From a virus, in IMG/VR virus record IMGVR_UViG_3300006155_000030: a stretch of DNA of 43,889 bases; one strand, given 5' to 3'. The notes under the pieces were generated by a model. That model did not search any database and had not been told where the DNA came from. It saw nothing but the letters and a program-made list of their open reading frames with translations. The stretch's first letter is position 1; the number at the start of each line of letters is the position of its first letter. This document shows, in pieces, positions 1,690 through 29,214 of this stretch. The translations under genes were made by a program, and so were the position numbers.

Positions 1690-2325
1690 CTAAAATTCAG
1701 AGAGATTCTCGGCAATAGCCTGCCGTCTTGCGGTCGTATCCTTAATGCCGAAGATTTCCTCCCTTGTCATTTTCTTTGCGACGCCGCCATTCGGATTCAG
1801 CGGTCCCGTGAACGGTTTCGCCCGTCCTGCTTCAAGCTGCTCCTGCTTTTCGTCAACGAAAGCGGAAGCGTCTTTCTCTTTCATCTGGGAGATTAGGTCG
1901 TTCAGACCAAGGATTTTACCGTCTTTCAGCTTAAGACCGGCTTCCTTAATGTCAGCCATAACAGACTTTTTCGCCGCTTCACTGGTAAACTTTACGTCCT
2001 CTAATTCTGTTTTTAAGGCATCCGCAAAATCACGCTCATACAGTTTTGCGTCCCGGTCTTTCTCTGCGTCCTCGGCTTTCTTTTTATAGTCTGCCAACTG
2101 CGACTGCACCTGCGCCGGGTCGATACCCTCAAAGCCTTTCAAGGTTTCCTCTGCACTCTCGGCTTTTTCTTTCCATGCGTCCCGGTCGGCTTCCAGTTTG
2201 GAAATCGCCTTGTTATGCTCCGCTGTGTTCTTGTAATGCTCGGATAAGGCTTTCTTTACATCAGCCTGCTTGTCTGCCGGAATCTCAATCCCAAATGATT
2301 TCAAAGTTTCAATAAGTTTCTGCAT
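1690..2325 (-). CDS. scaffolding protein (GP20-like)
   Basis: 211-aa highly charged, helix-rich ORF (KQADVKKALSEHYKNTAEHNKAISKLEADRDAWKEKAESAEE) directly upstream of the capsid gene. SD AGGAGGATAAATATG. Confidence 0.75.
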   Translation of the reverse strand: MQKLIETLKSFGIEIPADKQADVKKALSEHYKNTAEHNKAISKLEADRDAWKEKAESAEETLKGFEGIDPAQVQSQLADYKKKAEDAEKDRDAKLYERDFADALKTELEDVKFTSEAAKKSVMADIKEAGLKLKDGKILGLNDLISQMKEKDASAFVDEKQEQLEAGRAKPFTGPLNPNGGVAKKMTREEIFGIKDTTARRQAIAENLSEF

Positions 2326-2401
2326 ATTTATCCTCCTGGTCGTGTTTATTGACCTGCCGCCGCAGGTATGGATTTAGGCAGATAGACCACTGCCGGGGTA
2401 A

Positions 2402-2484
2402 TTGAAGCGGCTGGAATCGAACCAACATCTACCCCATGAGTGATTAGCTATCTAGGGCGTTCTGTCCTTTTGAACTACGCTTCA
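2402..2484 (-). ncRNA. tRNA-like element T1 (canonical acceptor/D/T arms, 16-nt anticodon loop)
   Basis: Minus strand: TGAAGCG-TA-GTTC/AAAAGGACA/GAAC-G-CCCTA[GATAGCTAATCACTCA]TGGGG-TAGAT-GTTGG/TTCGATT/CCAGC-CGCTTCA. The 7-bp acceptor, GG D-loop and GGTTCGATTCC box are canonical. The loop closed by the 5-bp anticodon stem is 16 nt, so no anticodon can be assigned by hand. Confidence 0.55.
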
Positions 2485-2584
2485 AGGGGGTGCGCCCGCC
2501 CGCAATGGGCAGACGCTTGATAGGGAAATGTTGCACCTGCGCCATAGATCGCCTGCAAGCAGACAACATAGCCACAAGCACAAA

Positions 2585-2653
2585 TGCATCCGTGCGGAAT
2601 CGAACCGCCTTTACAGCGGGGTTTTATCCCCAGTTTCCATTACTGACGGATGC
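2585..2653 (-). ncRNA. tRNA-like element T2 (short, degenerate anticodon arm)
   Basis: Minus strand: GCATCCG-T-CAGT/AATGGAA/ACTG-GGG[ATAAAAC]CCC-GCTGTAAAG-GCGG/TTCGATT/CCGC-A-CGGATGC-A. The 7-bp acceptor and T-box are good. The anticodon stem is only 3-4 bp and the T stem 4 bp. Confidence 0.5.
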
Positions 2654-2712
2654 ACCCTCTTAGGAGGGTAAAGATAGGAATTTATCAAAAATTAGATAAT
2701 GTCAAAATAAAA

Positions 2713-3000
2713 TTACAAGTCATGTTCTGACATGATTTCTATTTCCGTTACATTGGCAAACTTAATAACATTCTCAAAGTCAATGTTTGCGTGTTCCAGT
2801 CGGTCAGCACATTTTACAATAACGTTGCCGCCCACGTTCTCCAATAGTTCAAAATGATTACATGAATATCCTTTATAATCAAAACGCTTCGGATTCATTT
2901 TTCTGTAATTATGCGTATACACCATATGACATCCGACAGTATTTCCTTTTCTTGTCCTCAAAATCATAAGGCTGTCAGTATATTTCATTTCTCCGCACAT
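2713..3000 (-). CDS. hypothetical protein (95 aa)
   Basis: Start moved to ATG 3000 (MCGEMKYTDS...) because of SD TTTTAGGAGGTAAAAAGATG. The track ORF extends to 3036 without an SD. Confidence 0.5.
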   Translation of the reverse strand: MCGEMKYTDSLMILRTRKGNTVGCHMVYTHNYRKMNPKRFDYKGYSCNHFELLENVGGNVIVKCADRLEHANIDFENVIKFANVTEIEIMSEHDL

Positions 3001-3013
3001 CTTTTTACCTCCT

Positions 3014-3057
3014 AAAATAAAAATGCCAGCAAACACGATTTCTCGTATCTACTGGCA
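3014..3057 (-). terminator. hairpin + T-run (possible terminator/attenuator)
   Basis: Minus strand TGCCAGTA-N18-TGCTGGCA followed by TTTTTATTTT. A second copy of AGTGCCAGTA lies 20 nt upstream (direct repeats TACTGGCACT at 3050-3059 and 3070-3079). Confidence 0.45.
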
Positions 3058-4640: not shown

Positions 4641-4675
4641 AATCCCTCCAATATACCATAAATACTGCGCAACAT

Positions 4676-4790
4676 TTGGAAGAATGGATTTGAACCATTA
4701 CCTAATAGCGTGCTCCCAACAGTCATAGAACGGAATCGAACCGCGATAACGTATCGTGCTCCCAATTACACCACTTCCAAACCTAATCTT
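4676..4790 (-). ncRNA. composite tRNA-like element T4
   Basis: TTGGAAG-TG-GTGT/AATTGGGA/GCAC-G-[54 nt]-AATGG/TTCAAAT/CCATT-CTTCCAA. The 54-nt insert contains a second TTGGGAGCACG (D-arm duplicate), a CGATA/CGT/TATCG hairpin and a second GGTTCGATTCC box. Confidence 0.5.
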
Positions 4791-10793: not shown

Positions 10794-11033
10794 TTAATAA
10801 ACATACACATAAGACTGTTTTAACTCCATTATCTCAATCTCAATTTTAAATCTTCCATGCGGACAGTACGCATATTTCCCACATTCATCAGCAAGGCAGA
10901 GTGTTCCGTCCTCGTCTATATGAAATCCCTCCATATCGCAATACATGAGGCCTTTCGCCCATTCTTCTGTTAATGCGATATTGCTCATATCCGGCTCTTT
11001 ACCTGTGAGTATATCAATAACACTAAACCTCAT
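10794..11033 (-). CDS. hypothetical protein (79 aa)
   Basis: ORF overlapping the stop of the minor head gene by 4 nt. No recognisable motifs. Confidence 0.45.
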   Translation of the reverse strand: MRFSVIDILTGKEPDMSNIALTEEWAKGLMYCDMEGFHIDEDGTLCLADECGKYAYCPHGRFKIEIEIMELKQSYVYVY

Positions 11034-12295
11034 TCTTCCTTCTCCTTTTTATATCTCCTTGCCCCTGCATTACTCCGCTTTGTCTGCTCCCTGCCAAAAT
11101 CAGCTACCTTTATACGGTCATATTGCGGCTGTAAATCGTTGGTGGCGCAGAAATCGTTATACGCCTTGTTTTTCTGTGTCAGTTGGTACGCCATGCGATC
11201 ATATTCTTGTTGCAGCTTGCCAACGTCCATATCTTCACGGGGATTGTTTATCTGCTCCTGTTTCTCTATCAGCTTTCGCTTCCATGCCCGCAGGCTCCGC
11301 TCCATAGCACGCTGTTTCTGCTGAAGCTCATAGCGTTTTTTATTTTCCTCGCTGTCAATTTTCAGATTGCCTTTTTCGTCCACATAGGGATTGCGTAAGC
11401 GTGGATCCCATGGCTTATGTGAATGCCTGCAATTATACCCATGCAATCCAAGCGGATTGTCAACCTTGCCCTGCCCGGTCGTCGGGTCAATGTCATACCC
11501 TGTGGATTCCAACAGATTAGGATAGCCCGTCTCGCTCCCTCTTATCCGATAAGCCTTACCTTGCCAGTCAGCATGAGAAGCAAGCGGCGGCTGTCCTTTC
11601 TGCGCCACTCTCGCCCCCAAATGCGCCGATACAAGGACATACTCAATTCCACCCTCAACTATGTATTGATTCGTCACTTGCGCCGCTGTCTGGTTCATGC
11701 TCGTTACCACGCAGCACCGCACCGCCGCTTCCAGCGTCCGGCGTGTACCGCTCGGATAATCAACATATATCCCCCGTCCTGCATATATATCTAAAATATC
11801 ACACACCGCCGCTGAATAGCTTTGCACTCCTGCCGCCACTCTCAAATCAGCTTCATCAAGCATATTGATAAGATCAATCTGGCTTTGATTCATTGTAGTA
11901 CGTGTCAGATTAGCCAGTTCTCCTAAACTCTTTTTATATTCTGCATCCATAACACGTATCACAGCCGGATTTTTTAACGGAGATTTTACAACATTATTCC
12001 CCATCCACTGCACCATGGATTCCTTATCATCTTCCCATGATACCATAACAGCTTCTTGCAGTATTTTTTTTAGTTCATACCGTGTTAATCCGGTCAATTT
12101 CGATAGCTTATTTTCTATCGCCCGTCTACTTTCTCCCATCTGCTTTAATTTCCAGATAAGCCGGTCGGCGGTGGCGGTCATTTCCCCGGCGGATAGTAGG
12201 CGGCGGGTTATGTCTTTTAGGATAAAGTTTTCCAACTCTGAATATAGCTGTAAAAGCCTATCCTCACGATTTGTAAAGTAGTCCGGCGGTAACAT
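11030..12295 (-). CDS. minor head protein (Mu F / SPP1 gp7-like)
   Basis: 421 aa in the portal-proximal head module. The central region (..VDYPSGTRRTLEAAVRCCV.., ..GYNCRHSHKPW..) is typical of MuF-like head morphogenesis proteins as recalled. Confidence 0.7.
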   Translation of the reverse strand: MLPPDYFTNREDRLLQLYSELENFILKDITRRLLSAGEMTATADRLIWKLKQMGESRRAIENKLSKLTGLTRYELKKILQEAVMVSWEDDKESMVQWMGNNVVKSPLKNPAVIRVMDAEYKKSLGELANLTRTTMNQSQIDLINMLDEADLRVAAGVQSYSAAVCDILDIYAGRGIYVDYPSGTRRTLEAAVRCCVVTSMNQTAAQVTNQYIVEGGIEYVLVSAHLGARVAQKGQPPLASHADWQGKAYRIRGSETGYPNLLESTGYDIDPTTGQGKVDNPLGLHGYNCRHSHKPWDPRLRNPYVDEKGNLKIDSEENKKRYELQQKQRAMERSLRAWKRKLIEKQEQINNPREDMDVGKLQQEYDRMAYQLTQKNKAYNDFCATNDLQPQYDRIKVADFGREQTKRSNAGARRYKKEKEE

Positions 12296-14162: not shown

Positions 14163-15611
14163 CTATTCCTCCCCAAACAATCCCTCTTTCGGCTCATTCT
14201 CGCTCTTAGCTTCTGCCGCTACTGCCTTTGCTTCTTCCTCGCTCATTCCCTCAAACTTGACATAATACAGCCAAAGAGGGTATTTACCAAGCGTCACATA
14301 CTGCCAATGCCTTGCCCTGTCCTCTTCCCAGTTGTATGTTATATCGCCAAAATCATAATTGACTTCATACACTCCAACAGGTGCAAGGTTGTATATATCT
14401 GCATACTTATCCAGCGCATAGATAAGTCCGTCCGTAGCCGACTGGAAGCTGTCCCGTATCTGCTTTATGTACTGTATAGTCTCCCGGTCATCCGCTTCTA
14501 CCTGCGTGGCGGTAACGTGCCCTGTCCTGCCATTCAACACAAATTGCCCCGTGCTATACCCACACTTCACGCCGACAAGGTTCAAAAAGTGGTCTATTCC
14601 GCTTAATCTGTCCGCTGTCTGTAATGCAGGGTTTACTTCGTGGTATTCTTCCCCGGTAGTGCTGCCGGGCAATATACGAACGTGCCGGGGTAATGCTTTC
14701 CCGGTCTTATCCACCGCACCACCGGGAGCGAACCGGCTACGCACCGGCCGGCCGGGTTCGTCAATCAGCATATCCCCCAGGAACGTAATTTTCTGACTAT
14801 CGAATATTTCATCTTCTAAGCGTGTCCACGCAATATCCAGAGATTTCATCTCCTTTTGAGCGTTGGAGAAAATAGAAACGCCAAGAGGACTGCTCATATC
14901 AATATTATTAGACAGCGGCATTTTGAAAATGGAGAAAAGCGGCTGTTCTATATTCTGATAAGCAATATCTTCCTGCAGGTTCGCCCATACCGTCTCTTTT
15001 ATGCTGCACTCCTGCCCGATACCATTCGCCCCGGTTGCCTTGTATGTCTTGTTGGTGATCCGGAATATCCGCACATCTTCCGACACATCTTCAAACCGCT
15101 GCCACTCTAACCGGGTATAATACCACTTATCCCCCGGCTCATGGTAATGGTCGAAGAATATTCCGCCATCAATCTTCCCATCCGTGGCGTGTGTCGGGCA
15201 AAAATCCCACGGCATGACATAATCTATGCCCTCACCATTTGGCTTTAAGATGATATGCCCAAACGCACACGCTTTCTCACATTCCTCATTCTTCATCCGT
15301 GCAATATAACTTCTCATAAAGCCATTGATCCAGTCCGCTCTTGCTGAACCCTCTACCGTGATTCCAAGTGCAAGCGTGGTAAGCCTTGCGGTCTCGTTGC
15401 ACAGCTTCTTTGCAAAGTTAAAGGATTCAATGTCAATATTCCCTTTATCGTCTGGCAGTGTCCAGTCTGGCTTGCCCTGGTAGATATTCACCCAATCCGT
15501 CAGTGCCGCTTTCATCACGTCGCTTTCGATTGTCTCAACCCCGAATTTGTCCTGCGCTTCTTTCTGCCACAAACTGTCCCACCACCTTTTTATTGTTTGA
15601 ATTATTCCCAT
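14163..15611 (-). CDS. portal protein
   Basis: 482-aa ORF overlapping the TerL stop (shared nt 15611). Size and position are canonical for SPP1-gp6-type portals. Confidence 0.85.
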   Translation of the reverse strand: MGIIQTIKRWWDSLWQKEAQDKFGVETIESDVMKAALTDWVNIYQGKPDWTLPDDKGNIDIESFNFAKKLCNETARLTTLALGITVEGSARADWINGFMRSYIARMKNEECEKACAFGHIILKPNGEGIDYVMPWDFCPTHATDGKIDGGIFFDHYHEPGDKWYYTRLEWQRFEDVSEDVRIFRITNKTYKATGANGIGQECSIKETVWANLQEDIAYQNIEQPLFSIFKMPLSNNIDMSSPLGVSIFSNAQKEMKSLDIAWTRLEDEIFDSQKITFLGDMLIDEPGRPVRSRFAPGGAVDKTGKALPRHVRILPGSTTGEEYHEVNPALQTADRLSGIDHFLNLVGVKCGYSTGQFVLNGRTGHVTATQVEADDRETIQYIKQIRDSFQSATDGLIYALDKYADIYNLAPVGVYEVNYDFGDITYNWEEDRARHWQYVTLGKYPLWLYYVKFEGMSEEEAKAVAAEAKSENEPKEGLFGEE

Positions 15612-16885
15612 TACGCACTATTCCCCCTACTTAATGCCATAGGACTGATTGCATACCGTGTCGCATCAATCCAGTGGTTGTTTTTATCGGGGTATGCCTG
15701 TATGACTTCCCCGTTTGCATCGACTTCCAACTCATACTCTATAAACTCTTTATACAGTCTCGGCGTTCTGCGTGGGTCTATAACGTGCTTTCGGCACTGC
15801 AACCACTCCATTGTATATTTCACGGAGCCGCCCCACTGGCTCATGCGTCCTACCTCTGCCGCCCTTGCCGGAAGTCCTTTATCCCTAAAATCAACCGTAC
15901 TTTCGTTTTCGTCTGCTCCGCAGATAATTTGGTAATCGTCATATCCTTTTTCCTTAATCTGTGCCGCCATGTCTGCCACACGGATTTTACAGCCACCCAT
16001 TTCATCAAGATAATACAGCGTTTCTTTGTTCCTGTTGTACCCAAGTCTGACAAAAGCTTTCGGGTCGGGATACCAACCCCAATCCTGCCCTTGATAGATT
16101 CGCTCCATATTGGAGATTTCTTCGTCTGTGATTTCTCGTATCTCAATAAATTCAAATACGGTCGTTCCAAGTCCGACAGGAATACCTAAATACTCATGTT
16201 GATAGGCTTTTATATTGGTTTCTTTTAGGTGTTCCGCATCATCTATAAATTGCTGTCCTAGCCAATCGCGGGGGACTGTCGTATAGTCCGATTTATGTCG
16301 CAGTGCGTCCGCTCGCGGCTCATTTACATACTGATTTGCCCAGTTTGCATTTGTGATAGGCGGGTTGAAACTCTTAAACACCACAAACTTACTGCCACCA
16401 CGGAGTACCGACTGCTGTACGGTTCGGATTTCCTCAATCCCGGCAAACTCGTCCAATTCCTCAAACCAGAGATACTTAAAATATCCATGCGATACCTTTA
16501 TGGACTTCGTTTTCTTTGCTTTATCTAGTCCACGGAATAATATCTTTTGCCCTGTCGGCTTATAAACAAATGAAAGAGGGCTGACCTTTGCCTCCCACAA
16601 GTCAGTTGCCCCCAGTGCGTCTATACCCCACTGTATCTGCTCATATACGGATTCTCGGAGCGTGACCGCATATTTACGGAATATAACTGCATTTGCCAAC
16701 GGGTCTTGCATCATGCCAAGAGGTATCTCCACGCCGATAAATGATGATTTCGTACTACCCCTACCGCCGTAAAGGTCATAGTATATATGCTTGCCCTCTT
16801 GTATATCTCTATGAACATAATAAAATGCAGGGGCAATCAGTTCAGTTAATTTTACCGTCGTCTGTTCTTGGTATATCATCGACAA
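15611..16885 (-). CDS. terL: terminase large subunit (PBSX/Terminase_3 type)
   Basis: 424 aa with Walker A YGGRGSTKSSF near the N-terminus and a C-terminal nuclease region (..GADENEST.., ..NNHWIDATRY..). It follows TerS. Confidence 0.9.
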   Translation of the reverse strand: MSMIYQEQTTVKLTELIAPAFYYVHRDIQEGKHIYYDLYGGRGSTKSSFIGVEIPLGMMQDPLANAVIFRKYAVTLRESVYEQIQWGIDALGATDLWEAKVSPLSFVYKPTGQKILFRGLDKAKKTKSIKVSHGYFKYLWFEELDEFAGIEEIRTVQQSVLRGGSKFVVFKSFNPPITNANWANQYVNEPRADALRHKSDYTTVPRDWLGQQFIDDAEHLKETNIKAYQHEYLGIPVGLGTTVFEFIEIREITDEEISNMERIYQGQDWGWYPDPKAFVRLGYNRNKETLYYLDEMGGCKIRVADMAAQIKEKGYDDYQIICGADENESTVDFRDKGLPARAAEVGRMSQWGGSVKYTMEWLQCRKHVIDPRRTPRLYKEFIEYELEVDANGEVIQAYPDKNNHWIDATRYAISPMALSRGNSA

Positions 16886-26919: not shown

Positions 26920-27699
26920 ATGGATGTATACGAAGTTTTATCGGATATAATGGCTTATGAAGGACTTTCAATAGCACAAGTGGCAAAGAAATGTGGTCTT
27001 CCAGATTCTACGGTTAGAGGCATTACAACCAGAAAACAAAAAACTGTCTCACTTGATGTTGCATATAAACTTTCTGATGGATTAGGTGTTTCACTCGAAC
27101 GATTGAACGGGATGAAAGACCCCAATGAAAATAAAGAAAGAAGTTATTATGAAACTCATGCCACGGATAAGGAATTTGAGGACATTATAAGAAAATATCG
27201 TATTATATCCGAATATTCCCCGGACGGAGCAGTCGTGGTTGATACGGTACTGGATAGGGAGTATGCTATTGCGGAGAAGTTGAGGGAGCAGAAAGAGCAG
27301 TTGGAAAAGGTTCAGAGGATGAATATAGAAGTATCGGAAGAACTTATACCATTAAGGCTGTGGGCTTATTACGGGAAAATCGCTTGCGCCGGAACTGGAT
27401 TTATATTTGATGATATTCCATCAGATACCGTTCAAGCCCCGGACGCAAACGCAGACTTTATAATAGGTGTAAACGGTGATTCTATGGAGCCTGACTATTC
27501 TGACGGAGAAAAACTGTATATTAAAAAGGTAGAGCGTATAAATCCGGGCGAAGTCGGCATATTCACTATCAATAATGAATGTTTCTTGAAAGAATATGGA
27601 AAAGACGGGCTTGTTTCCAGAAATAAAAAGTATGACGATATTCCGGGAAACGAAGATGTACGTCTAATTGGGAAAGTAGTTGGAAAAGTTGAGGAATAA
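26920..27699 (+). CDS. CI-like repressor (XRE HTH + S24 LexA-type peptidase)
   Basis: 259 aa. N-terminal HTH LSIAQVAKKCGLPDSTVRGI, C-terminal GDSMEP..K catalytic pattern of S24 autopeptidases. SD GGAAGGAGGGAAACAGATG. Confidence 0.9.
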   Translation: MDVYEVLSDIMAYEGLSIAQVAKKCGLPDSTVRGITTRKQKTVSLDVAYKLSDGLGVSLERLNGMKDPNENKERSYYETHATDKEFEDIIRKYRIISEYSPDGAVVVDTVLDREYAIAEKLREQKEQLEKVQRMNIEVSEELIPLRLWAYYGKIACAGTGFIFDDIPSDTVQAPDANADFIIGVNGDSMEPDYSDGEKLYIKKVERINPGEVGIFTINNECFLKEYGKDGLVSRNKKYDDIPGNEDVRLIGKVVGKVEE

Positions 27700-28023: not shown

Positions 28024-28179
28024 AAGAAAAAACCGCCCGGCGCTACCAACACCGAACGGCTTACATAGATACCAGAAGATGATACCTACAACCCAAAAAT
28101 ATTGTATCATCTTCGGGGGCGGCTTGCAAGCGGATTTCCCGCAGGCTGTTATTTTTTTACAAAAAAGGAGGATGATACC

Positions 28180-29214
28180 ATGGCAACAGCAAAAAAACTA
28201 CCGTCCGGCAACTGGCGCTGCCAAGTCTACGATTACACGGACGGAGCTGGGAAACGGCATTACAAGTCCTTTACGGCCGCCACGAAAAGGGGAGCGGAGC
28301 ATCTGGCCGCAGAATACGCCGACACAAAAAAGGAGCGGCCGCAGCCGCTTAAGGTGACAGTGGGCAAGGCGCTGGATAATTATATCAATATCAAAAGCAA
28401 TGTATTATCCCCCAGCACGGTAAGGGGGTACCGCGCGATGAGAAGCAGCAACTATTCCGATATCGAAGATATCCTGCTGGAAGACCTCACGCAGGAAGTG
28501 GTGCAGATATGGGCAAACTCCTTGGCTGCAAAGAAAAATGCCAAAACGGTTAAAAACGCCCATGGGCTGCTGTCGGCCATGCTCTCCGTGTATATGCCAG
28601 ATTTCATGCTCCGTACCGCCCTTCCGAAAAAGCAGAAGGAAGTGCCGTACATACCAACAGAAAGCGATATAAGGCTCATAATGGAGTTTTTCAAGGAAAA
28701 GGATACAGAAATGCTTAAGGCGGTTTACCTGGCCGCGTTCGGCACGCTGCGGCGTTCAGAGATATGCGGGTTGACCGGGGAAGATATAGAGGGGAATGTG
28801 ATCCACGTCCACTCGGCTGTTGTTATGGATGATTCGGCTAACTGGATCAAAAAAAATACAAAAACATCTTCCAGCGACAGATATATACCTCTTCCAGATT
28901 TCGTAATCGATGCGCTGCCAAAAAGCGGCAATGTAGTTCTAATTGAACCTTCCAAAATATCTGCACGGTTTTCGTCCGCATTGAAAAGACTTTCCATACC
29001 TCATTTCCGCTTCCATGATTTGCGCCATTATTCGGCCAGCATCATGCACGCGATCGGCATCCCGGATCAATATATCATGCAGCGGGGCGGTTGGAGTTCG
29101 GATGGGGTTTTAAAATCAATTTACCGCAATACCATGGACGATTACGCCAAAAAATTTAGCAGCCAGATCAACGATTATTTTAAAAATGCAACACAAAATA
29201 TCACACAAGAATAG
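28180..29214 (+). CDS. int: tyrosine integrase
   Basis: Start at ATG 28180 (MATAKKLPSGNWRCQVY) with SD AAAAGGAGGA. The C-terminal catalytic region is LRRSE..HFRFHDLRHY..GGWSS..LKSIYRN (R..HxxR..Y). Confidence 0.9.
   Translation: MATAKKLPSGNWRCQVYDYTDGAGKRHYKSFTAATKRGAEHLAAEYADTKKERPQPLKVTVGKALDNYINIKSNVLSPSTVRGYRAMRSSNYSDIEDILLEDLTQEVVQIWANSLAAKKNAKTVKNAHGLLSAMLSVYMPDFMLRTALPKKQKEVPYIPTESDIRLIMEFFKEKDTEMLKAVYLAAFGTLRRSEICGLTGEDIEGNVIHVHSAVVMDDSANWIKKNTKTSSSDRYIPLPDFVIDALPKSGNVVLIEPSKISARFSSALKRLSIPHFRFHDLRHYSASIMHAIGIPDQYIMQRGGWSSDGVLKSIYRNTMDDYAKKFSSQINDYFKNATQNITQE

Follow-up and report, generated by a model that had tools for sequence, protein, structure and literature searches.

The window analysed here is the complete 43,889-nucleotide (nt) genome of a temperate phage (IMG/VR record IMGVR_UViG_3300006155_000030), in which a non-coding stretch holding two elements shaped like transfer RNAs (tRNAs), T1 (2402-2484, minus strand) and T2 (2585-2653, minus strand), lies directly upstream of the scaffolding protein gene on the same strand. 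Four RNA modules, each conserved, make up these 252 nt, which belong to the leader of the scaffold/capsid operon: read in the direction of the gene, a leader with a CCUCC run is followed by T2, a hairpin that we call H, a G+C-rich hairpin, T1 and a 76-nt mRNA leader. With about even confidence, we read T1 and T2 as non-decoding modules of this array that may serve as handles for processing by RNase P and RNase Z. Processing signals in the shape of a tRNA are already familiar as a principle; what appears to be new here is the family in which we place T2, a set of miniature tRNA-like elements ('minis') without an anticodon arm. The literature that we searched on tRNA-like RNAs in phages contains no description of such a family, which is apparently undescribed.

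The relatives of the phage are prophages and viral contigs of Lachnospiraceae from the mouse and human gut, and ~110 such loci, from phages and prophages, were compared. Among them were 80 IMG/VR loci with the scaffold protein and two GenBank relatives (82 in all). We scored the terminal slot in 83 arrays and the first module in ~111 arrays. The mini family is defined by a model (R1) and two alignments (A1 and A2).

T2 has a perfect acceptor of 7 base pairs (bp; G2653 to G2647 with C2592 to C2586) followed by discriminator A2585, a D stem CAGU/ACUG with a GG loop, and a T arm with loop UUCGAUU, whose stem opens with a G-A pair and continues with 4 bp. Between the D and T arms stand solely GGGG-AUAAAA-CCCC, a 4-bp stem with a 6-nt loop, and 9 nt. 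This direct reading agrees with an earlier, model-made annotation of the window (the first-pass annotation), which had described intact acceptor, D and T arms and a stub where the anticodon arm should be. It had also held that both modules are non-decoding, which stands for T1 and T2 alike as far as standard decoding goes, and that they had lost a decodable anticodon, which does not stand for T2: its 'anticodon arm' is a lineage-specific insertion in an already armless element and not a decayed arm, because 20 nt (2617-2636, minus strand) stand where relatives have 2 nt, and it is these 20 nt that create the stub. Another, unrelated insertion occurs at the same point in locus L095 alone (alignment A1 and the R1 alignment). 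T2 carries the exact 17-nt 5' motif of the family; the 34-nt pattern from D to T arm is interrupted by the insertion and so matches relatives alone. Against R1, T2 scores 75.9 bits with the 20-nt insert placed at the D loop, a value that is partly circular because T2 is in the training alignment. No Rfam tRNA, tRNA-Sec or tRNA-clan model matched T2 at E ≤ 10.

Two exact patterns taken from T2, the 17-nt motif and the 34-nt pattern, retrieved 30 further loci from IMG/VR and GTDB genomes, with Lachnospiraceae, Acetatifactor and Eubacterium sp. 14-2 among the hosts. All but one of these hold a 51-nt element (mini-1), which reads, from its 5' end, as an acceptor of 7 bp, a single unpaired U, a hairpin of 3 bp whose loop is UAAUGGYG, the linker UAAAG, a 4-bp T stem with loop UUCGAUU, an unpaired A, the acceptor 3' strand, A73 and UU. 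A second subfamily (mini-2; GCGCACG-CUUUAAUGGAAAG-UUAAA-CAGGUUCGAAUCCUG-U-CGUGCGU-A) was found with R1 and a descriptor scan at 24 loci in human-gut relatives. In total, the family covers 55 loci in two diverged subfamilies (31 mini-1 arrays and 24 mini-2) with a common plan of ~50 nt: a 7-bp acceptor, a 3-4-bp D-like hairpin with an AAUGG loop, a 4-7-nt linker, a 4-5-bp T stem with a UUCRAWU loop, and A73 followed by UU.

Across both subfamilies, 91.7% of cells in the acceptor and T stems are paired, compared with 27-55% in slid controls, and in the two-subfamily alignment 7 of the 12 pairs (42 cells) have changed on both sides. The covariation score of 0.422, compared with 0.191 in shuffles, was reached by 0 of 500 shuffles. 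The D stem covaries too (CAG/CUG, CUUU/AAAG and CCUU/AAGG). Much of this signal is the split between the two clades; pairs 1-72 and 3-70 also vary within subfamily 2. When a descriptor of the acceptor and T arm was run on 967 kb of related loci, it found 51 mini-sized and 108 tRNA-sized elements, whereas ten dinucleotide shuffles gave 0-3 and 0-2, respectively. Since the family is armless in 55 loci and its stems are kept by compensatory changes, the T2 family is not a product of random decay.

T1 reads as a standard cloverleaf in all but its anticodon loop. Its acceptor has 7 bp (2484-2478 with 2409-2403) and ends in a discriminator A at 2402, its D arm is GUUC/GAAC with a loop containing GG, its variable region is UAGAU and its T arm is GUUGG-UUCGAUU-CCAGC. 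The 5-bp anticodon stem CCCUA/UGGGG (2457-2453 with 2436-2432) closes a loop of 16 nt (2452-2437), so that T1 lacks the 7-nt loop with U33 and a readable triplet that a decoding tRNA has on its 5-bp stem. Rfam tRNA (RF00005) matches T1 over 2402-2484 with 44.2 bits (gathering score 29; E-value 2.7e-6 for the whole window), aligning 20 nt in place of the model's 11; the fast gathering run missed both T1 and another tRNA-like module of the window, T4, which permissive runs alone recovered. Both the direct reading and this score bear out the cloverleaf with a 16-nt anticodon loop that the first-pass annotation had drawn. It had also pointed to tRNA finders as a check, and ARAGORN, run on the whole window, found no tRNA gene and no transfer-messenger RNA (tmRNA), rejecting T1 and T2 alike; it thus reports no normal anticodon loop in the window. 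T1 and T2 both have the 7-bp acceptor, the GG D arm, the UUCRANY T loop and the discriminator.

Copies of T1 were found by exact searches of IMG/VR and a metagenome collection on three other contigs (L085, L101 and L087). In L085 and L101, the layout of T2, spacer and T1 is that of the window and the 16-nt loop is identical; T1 differs there in one variable-loop base, a T-stem change from U-G to U-A, and the discriminator. All three substitutions fall outside the 26-nt anticodon arm, which with four sequences, three of them near-identical, is not significant as a sign of constraint. The L087 element has the acceptor, variable loop, T arm and upstream G+C-rich hairpin of T1, a different D arm, and an anticodon arm with an abnormality of its own: ~7 bp interrupted by a mismatch, and 8 nt in the loop. 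RNAfold z-scores are poor for T1 and for this relative. T1 is absent from the closest relative, L003, whose scaffold protein is 94% identical, and is dispensable there. We regard T1 as a rare mosaic cassette, whose lineage has retained over-long, non-standard anticodon arms through at least one recombination event. Thus, the claim that the upper half of the tRNA is kept by something other than random decay fits T2, with its 55 loci and compensatory changes, and goes beyond what four sequences show for T1; conservation in relatives is likewise seen for the T2 family, and T1 is missing from the closest one. Nothing in the analysis supports the further suggestion that the 9-nt insertion in the T1 loop evades anticodon nucleases. 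A search of both strands of the window for a partner of the T1 loop, allowing up to 3 mismatches, returned solely the loop itself. A pattern for the T1 D arm, searched in IMG/VR and the metagenome collection, gave mostly unrelated matches: a stretch of coding sequence and a tRNA from an environmental sample, each with 17 nt in common through chance.

T1 fills a terminal slot whose position is fixed. Its discriminator (2402) directly adjoins the 76-nt mRNA leader (2326-2401, minus strand), which begins with UUACC, contains two hairpins and ends with the Shine-Dalgarno sequence AGGAGG of the scaffold gene; no Rfam family matches this leader in the window. In 82 of 82 relatives, conservation is 86-92% over the 96 nt that run from the 3' half of the T1 T loop to the start codon of the scaffold gene, and the similarity ends inside the T loop of whichever element fills the slot. 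With a simple descriptor, an acceptor/T-arm element ends at a fixed base before UUACC in 80 of the 83 arrays; of the three exceptions, two show such an element on inspection and one has no upstream sequence. In 69 of the 83 arrays (~83%), ARAGORN places a tRNA within 530 nt upstream of the leader, nearly always ending at the junction, and at least 11 anticodons occur among the slot tRNAs (CAT, GTA, GTT, TAT, TGT, CTG, TTG, TAA, GCT, TAC and ACA). The remaining slot elements are non-canonical; that of L004 is a copy of the window's T4. Given the fixed end and the varied anticodons, it is the tRNA shape and the junction that are constant in the slot, and not the anticodon. In L003, a T2-like mini is joined straight to the leader, with hairpin H, the G+C-rich hairpin and T1 all missing, from which it follows that any tRNA-shaped element can serve the junction. 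In the related prophage L110, a match to the cis-regulatory candidate GP20-b (RF03003, 41.7 bits; 2231-2295, minus strand) separates the last tRNA from a scaffold gene of an alternative kind.

The spacer between T2 and T1 had been described as about 100 nt of G+C-rich sequence, and it measures 100 nt with 58% G+C against 42% for the window. Hairpin H (2531-2583, minus strand) is irregular, with ~21 bp in the minimum-free-energy fold, and is conserved: 19 distinct copies occur in both phage lineages, always starting right 3' of a tRNA-like element, and RNAalifold finds 21 pairs with compensatory changes in 8. Its richness in G-U pairs points to structure in the sense-strand RNA. The G+C-rich hairpin (2492-2516, minus strand; 10 bp around the loop AUUGC), with ACCCCCU between it and T1, recurs in mini-1 arrays before the first tRNA or tRNA-like element after the mini; one G-C to G-U change in relatives is consistent with pairing. 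On the other side of T2, a hairpin ACCCUC-CUAA-GAGGGU (2654-2669, minus strand), whose last base is position -1 of T2 and which contains an anti-Shine-Dalgarno-like CCUCC run, is present in all mini-1 loci, in part with compensatory variants (ACCUU/AAGGU in L093). Further upstream, a promoter-like box (2679-2705, minus strand; TTGACA at 2705-2700, a 15-nt spacer with TG, and TAAATT at 2684-2679) is conserved before all mini-1 elements; in human-gut relatives, the homologous stretch lies within the transcript, downstream of a late promoter.

Runs resembling the 3' end of 16S rRNA recur in the arrays (window 2654-2669 and 2485-2491; L033:3620-3760 and sister loci). CCUCCUUUC precedes the mini or RAGATH-21, a structured motif described below, and CACCUCCUU or CACCCCCU follows it or precedes the next tRNA. 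Such runs could pair with the AGGAGG of the scaffold gene.

Non-standard anticodon arms are found elsewhere in these arrays. A 69-nt tRNA-shaped family, rejected by ARAGORN, occurs at ≥14 loci ~150-250 nt upstream of the slot (L010, L018, L008, L045, L056, L068, L072, L078 and others) and has a 5-bp anticodon stem with a 5-nt loop. A compensatory change in this stem, from CAGAG/CUCUG to CAGGG/CCCUG, argues for such arms being maintained rather than simply decaying. Acceptor, T arm, UUCRANY T loop and GG D loop are retained throughout T1, T2, the minis, the T4 type and the 69-nt family; what varies or is missing in them is the anticodon region. The insert of a further tRNA-like module of the window, T3 (4675-4780), contains a second T-arm-like GGUUCGAUUCC and a repeat of the T3 D-arm sequence; this inner repeat can pair with the 3' acceptor strand in an alternative, 45-nt mini-like fold, which is also found in L113.

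The mini is always the first structured module of its array, after a leader segment ending in a CCUCC(UUUC) run. Over the ~111 arrays, the first module is RAGATH-21 (RF03097) in 55, a mini of subfamily 1 in 31, a mini of subfamily 2 in 24 and neither in one (L051). No array has two of the three, which are thus mutually exclusive. In sister phages, RAGATH-21 occupies the same first position of the leader array at 55 loci and scores 78-92 bits (gathering score 70.3), and it has no match in the window either at gathering or at E ≤ 10. Like the minis, it has a closing stem followed by an unpaired A and then UU; its final hairpin, with a loop of 7 nt, sits directly against the closing stem's 3' strand in the fashion of a T arm. 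The closing stem and 3' flank of RAGATH-21 in L025 and L049 (ACGCACG...CGUGCGU-A-UUUGCCAU) are those of the L027 mini, and RAGATH-21 of L005 has GCACACG and a UUU tail in common with the L039 mini. Its interior differs: neither the 11-nt junction nor P2 nor the GAAA-looped P3 is related to T2's D hairpin and T arm. RAGATH-21 is an orphan motif of the Weinberg/Breaker comparative-genomics surveys, catalogued and unstudied, and no paper in the literature that we searched names it. On these observations, mini and RAGATH-21 elements look allelic. In L051, CCUCCUUUC of the leader runs straight into the module before the slot tRNA, which makes this locus a natural deletion mutant of the mini/RAGATH-21 position.

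The 3' flanks of the modules resemble those of host tRNA genes. In T1, A73 is followed by UUA and in T2 by UUU; neither encodes CCA, and both have U at -1. In Lachnospiraceae bacterium JLR.KK009, the host of a mini-1 prophage, none of 44 sampled tRNA genes (loci L117-L135) encodes CCA, so every tRNA must pass through RNase Z and the CCA-adding enzyme, and 41 of the 44 have U right after the discriminator. Uridines just 3' of the discriminator stimulate the RNase Z of Bacillus subtilis. RNase P, RNase Z and the CCA-adding enzyme recognize the elbow and measure along the stack of T stem and acceptor (PMC4919913), and CCA-less precursors are RNase Z substrates that are cut right after the discriminator (PMC8549757). 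Recognition by these three enzymes would fit both the anatomy of the modules and the style of the host tRNA genes.

The anatomy of the modules, their conservation, the fixed junctions and the host-like 3' flanks are direct observations. Because the enzymes measure the elbow and the ends are CCA-less and U-flanked as in the host, we read the array as a transcript that would be cut by the tRNA-maturation enzymes. We infer that it is transcribed as one RNA, the 5' leader of the scaffold/capsid operon in temperate Lachnospiraceae phages; that host RNase P would cut on the 5' side of each tRNA-shaped module and host RNase Z after its discriminator base, both reading the acceptor/T-arm stack and the D/T-loop elbow and not the anticodon arm; and that these cuts would free the real tRNAs in sister phages and fix the 5' end of the head mRNA at UUACC, with a possible benefit to that mRNA. 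As none of the modules in the window is decodable, processing or some other structural role alone would remain.

Several observations weigh against processing as the full account. Within subfamily 1 alone, covariation falls short of significance, in part since fixed patterns were used to collect its members. Five mini copies have acceptor mismatches (one each in L086, L087 and L096, and two each in L109 and L116), and the RNAfold minimum-energy fold of mini-1 differs from the tRNA-like fold. The hairpin abutting position -1 of T2 could hinder RNase P. It is uncertain whether the TTGACA/TAAATT box is a promoter that feeds T2: a scan for the sigma-70 consensus gives it no support, owing to its 15-nt spacer. 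L051 (IMGVR_UViG_3300029245_000027) has no first module at all, and a decodable tRNA stands in first position in 0 of the ~111 arrays. Generic processing does not explain why this position is never taken by a tRNA, which hints at a specific role for the mini and RAGATH-21. We therefore entertain, as a possible but tentative reading, that the two are interchangeable alleles with a dedicated function at the start of the head transcript that no real tRNA can supply. Such a function would be, for example, that of an acceptor/elbow mimic which, once released, would work in trans on a defence system or a factor of the host, or of an RNase P-dependent switch that removes the anti-Shine-Dalgarno-like 5' segment.

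Taken by itself, a role for the modules, and above all the mini, as trans-acting tRNA mimics is somewhat unlikely. They would be released as stable small RNAs that act on a tRNA-binding partner, and might be decoys for host toxins or defence nucleases directed at the acceptor ends or elbows of tRNAs, sponges for tRNA-modifying or tRNA-binding factors, or chargeable minihelices. Such a dedicated product is suggested by the first position, which is reserved for a mini or RAGATH-21 and in no case taken by a real tRNA; the stems drift, yet both subfamilies conserve the loops AAUGG and UUCGAWU as well as A73; and a place right after the transcript start would give a high copy number late in infection. 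However, a Pfam scan of 28 ORFs (open reading frames) of the window found no RNA ligase, nucleotidyltransferase, RNase or tRNA-binding domain, and so no RNA-related enzyme or partner gene for the modules, and both the lack of the element in L051 and the acceptor mismatches of some copies sit poorly with a mimic. The modules might instead be debris of a hot spot for the swapping of tRNA cassettes, with T1 (9-nt loop expansion) and T2 (20-nt insertion) as damaged copies that do nothing themselves and persist for want of selection against them. T1 is indeed rare, being present on three other contigs and missing from the closest relative, and the insertion in T2 occurs in the window alone; the modules form a mosaic, with common flanks and different middles in T1 and the L087 element; and a gene for an HNH homing-type endonuclease lies 1.5 kb upstream. 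T1 and the T2 insertion are better accounted for in this way than is the mini family, which is conserved with covariation in 55 loci. The 69-nt family, moreover, keeps its odd anticodon stem through compensatory changes at ≥14 loci, and what is defective lies in the anticodon region, with acceptor and T arm left intact, as is the D arm in most families; as an account of the whole, we consider debris unlikely.

It is doubtful that the region is an uncut cis-regulatory leader whose co-transcriptional folding controls the head operon, like the Rfam leader motifs before scaffold genes, although its location between a terminator (3059-3022) and the most highly expressed genes would suit one, as would the GP20-b candidate in the equivalent leader of L110. 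Control could come from antitermination, or from the hiding and exposure of the Shine-Dalgarno sequence by flanking CCUCC runs, and anti-Shine-Dalgarno-like CCUCCUUUC and CACCUCCUU runs do flank minis and RAGATH-21 in relatives. Yet a regulatory hairpin does not require the 12-bp acceptor/T stack, the elbow of a tRNA or the A73-UU end, and real tRNAs occupy the terminal slot in most relatives. That T1 and T2 are decoding tRNAs with odd anticodon arms, either through removal of a 9-nt micro-intron from T1 or through non-standard decoding, is very improbable. T1 does score above the Rfam tRNA threshold, and a weak 2-bp extension could close a 7-nt loop CUAAUCA; but the 5-bp stem cannot be made to close a 7-nt loop that has U33 and a purine at position 37, ARAGORN rejects both modules, the T2 family wholly lacks an anticodon arm, and the L087 variant has a different abnormal arm with no common 'intron'. 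Known bacterial tRNA introns are group I introns, far longer than 9 nt. Three other identities were considered and rejected: a remnant of attP or an integration site (the integrase gene is 26 kb away), a YrlA-type Y RNA (its permuted topology is not seen in T1 or T2) and a tmRNA-like domain (there is no mRNA-like part and ARAGORN finds no tmRNA).

Around the array, the scaffolding protein gene (1690-2325, minus strand) matches PF06810 (Pfam E-value 2e-20), and the ORF 3' of it (688-1674), which has no Pfam match, we take to be the major capsid gene. Elsewhere, the window carries genes for a minor capsid protein (11030-12295), the large terminase (15611-16885), a CI-type repressor (26920-27699) and an integrase (28102-29214). 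A 482-amino-acid ORF without a Pfam match (14163-15611) adjoins the terminase gene, and we take it to be the portal solely from that position. Upstream of the T2 region, between the terminator and the TTGACA box, lies an ORF of 107 amino acids (2713-3036, minus strand) with its own Shine-Dalgarno sequence and no Pfam match. In all relatives with mini-1 arrays, terminator and box are adjacent, unlike in the window, where this ORF stands between them, and UUUUAUUUU is repeated at both edges of the inserted stretch. Two related prophages contain matches to int-alpA RNA (RF02996; 46-49 bits; L110:7339-7405 and L115:5522-5586).

Phage tRNA genes are usually discussed solely as aids to codon usage or against defence, and here is a widespread gut-phage locus in which the tRNA shape is the constant and the anticodon is not. 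If the modules do act in processing, late mRNAs of temperate phages of dominant gut Firmicutes would be punctuated by tRNAs, and the 'empty' structured gaps that tRNA finders leave before capsid genes would be explained. If the mini acts in trans, it would be a new type of viral tRNA mimic and a handle on an orphan Rfam family; should the allelic reading with a dedicated function be correct, it would give the first functional lead for RAGATH-21 and a new class of phage tRNA mimics. For annotation, elements of the T1 and T2 type are better labelled tRNA-like than tRNA.

Among known systems, GOLLD and ROOL are structured non-coding RNAs found beside prophage tRNA genes and possibly co-transcribed with them (PMC5737381). 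They are ~600-800 nt long, whereas the modules here have 50-115 nt and are themselves tRNA-shaped; Rfam scans found neither in the window. The 8/4 type of 'allo-tRNA' has a 12-bp acceptor/T branch split 8/4 or 9/3 and a functional anticodon arm (PMC5389517). T2 can be drawn as 8/4 if U(-1) pairs with A73, yet it has no usable anticodon arm and so falls outside that type. A catalogue of viral structured RNAs mentions unnamed tRNA-like candidates and highly expressed RNAs of 64-86 nt in phages of Lachnospiraceae and Blautia (PMC10690425). With canonical phage tRNAs (RF00005), T1 shares standard acceptor, D and T arms and elbow nucleotides, and ordinary tRNAs fill its slot in sister phages; T1 differs from them by the 16-nt anticodon loop and T2 by the lack of a true anticodon arm. 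The mascRNA of MALAT1 and the stable tRNA-like RNAs of the tRNA cluster in phage T4 are likewise small, non-decoding RNAs, cut from a longer transcript by tRNA-processing enzymes. The former is eukaryotic and the latter come from a virulent coliphage; they have no sequence relation to the modules, and both keep a stem like that of an anticodon arm, which the minis lack. In plant mitochondria, t-elements and tRNA punctuation place non-decoding tRNA shapes at mRNA ends, where RNase P and RNase Z set the ends of transcripts. The geometry is that of T1, an acceptor/T-arm structure directly adjoining the end of an mRNA; t-elements are organellar and single and their cleavage has been demonstrated, whereas the phage modules lie in a recombining array together with real tRNAs and would be cut in the manner we infer.

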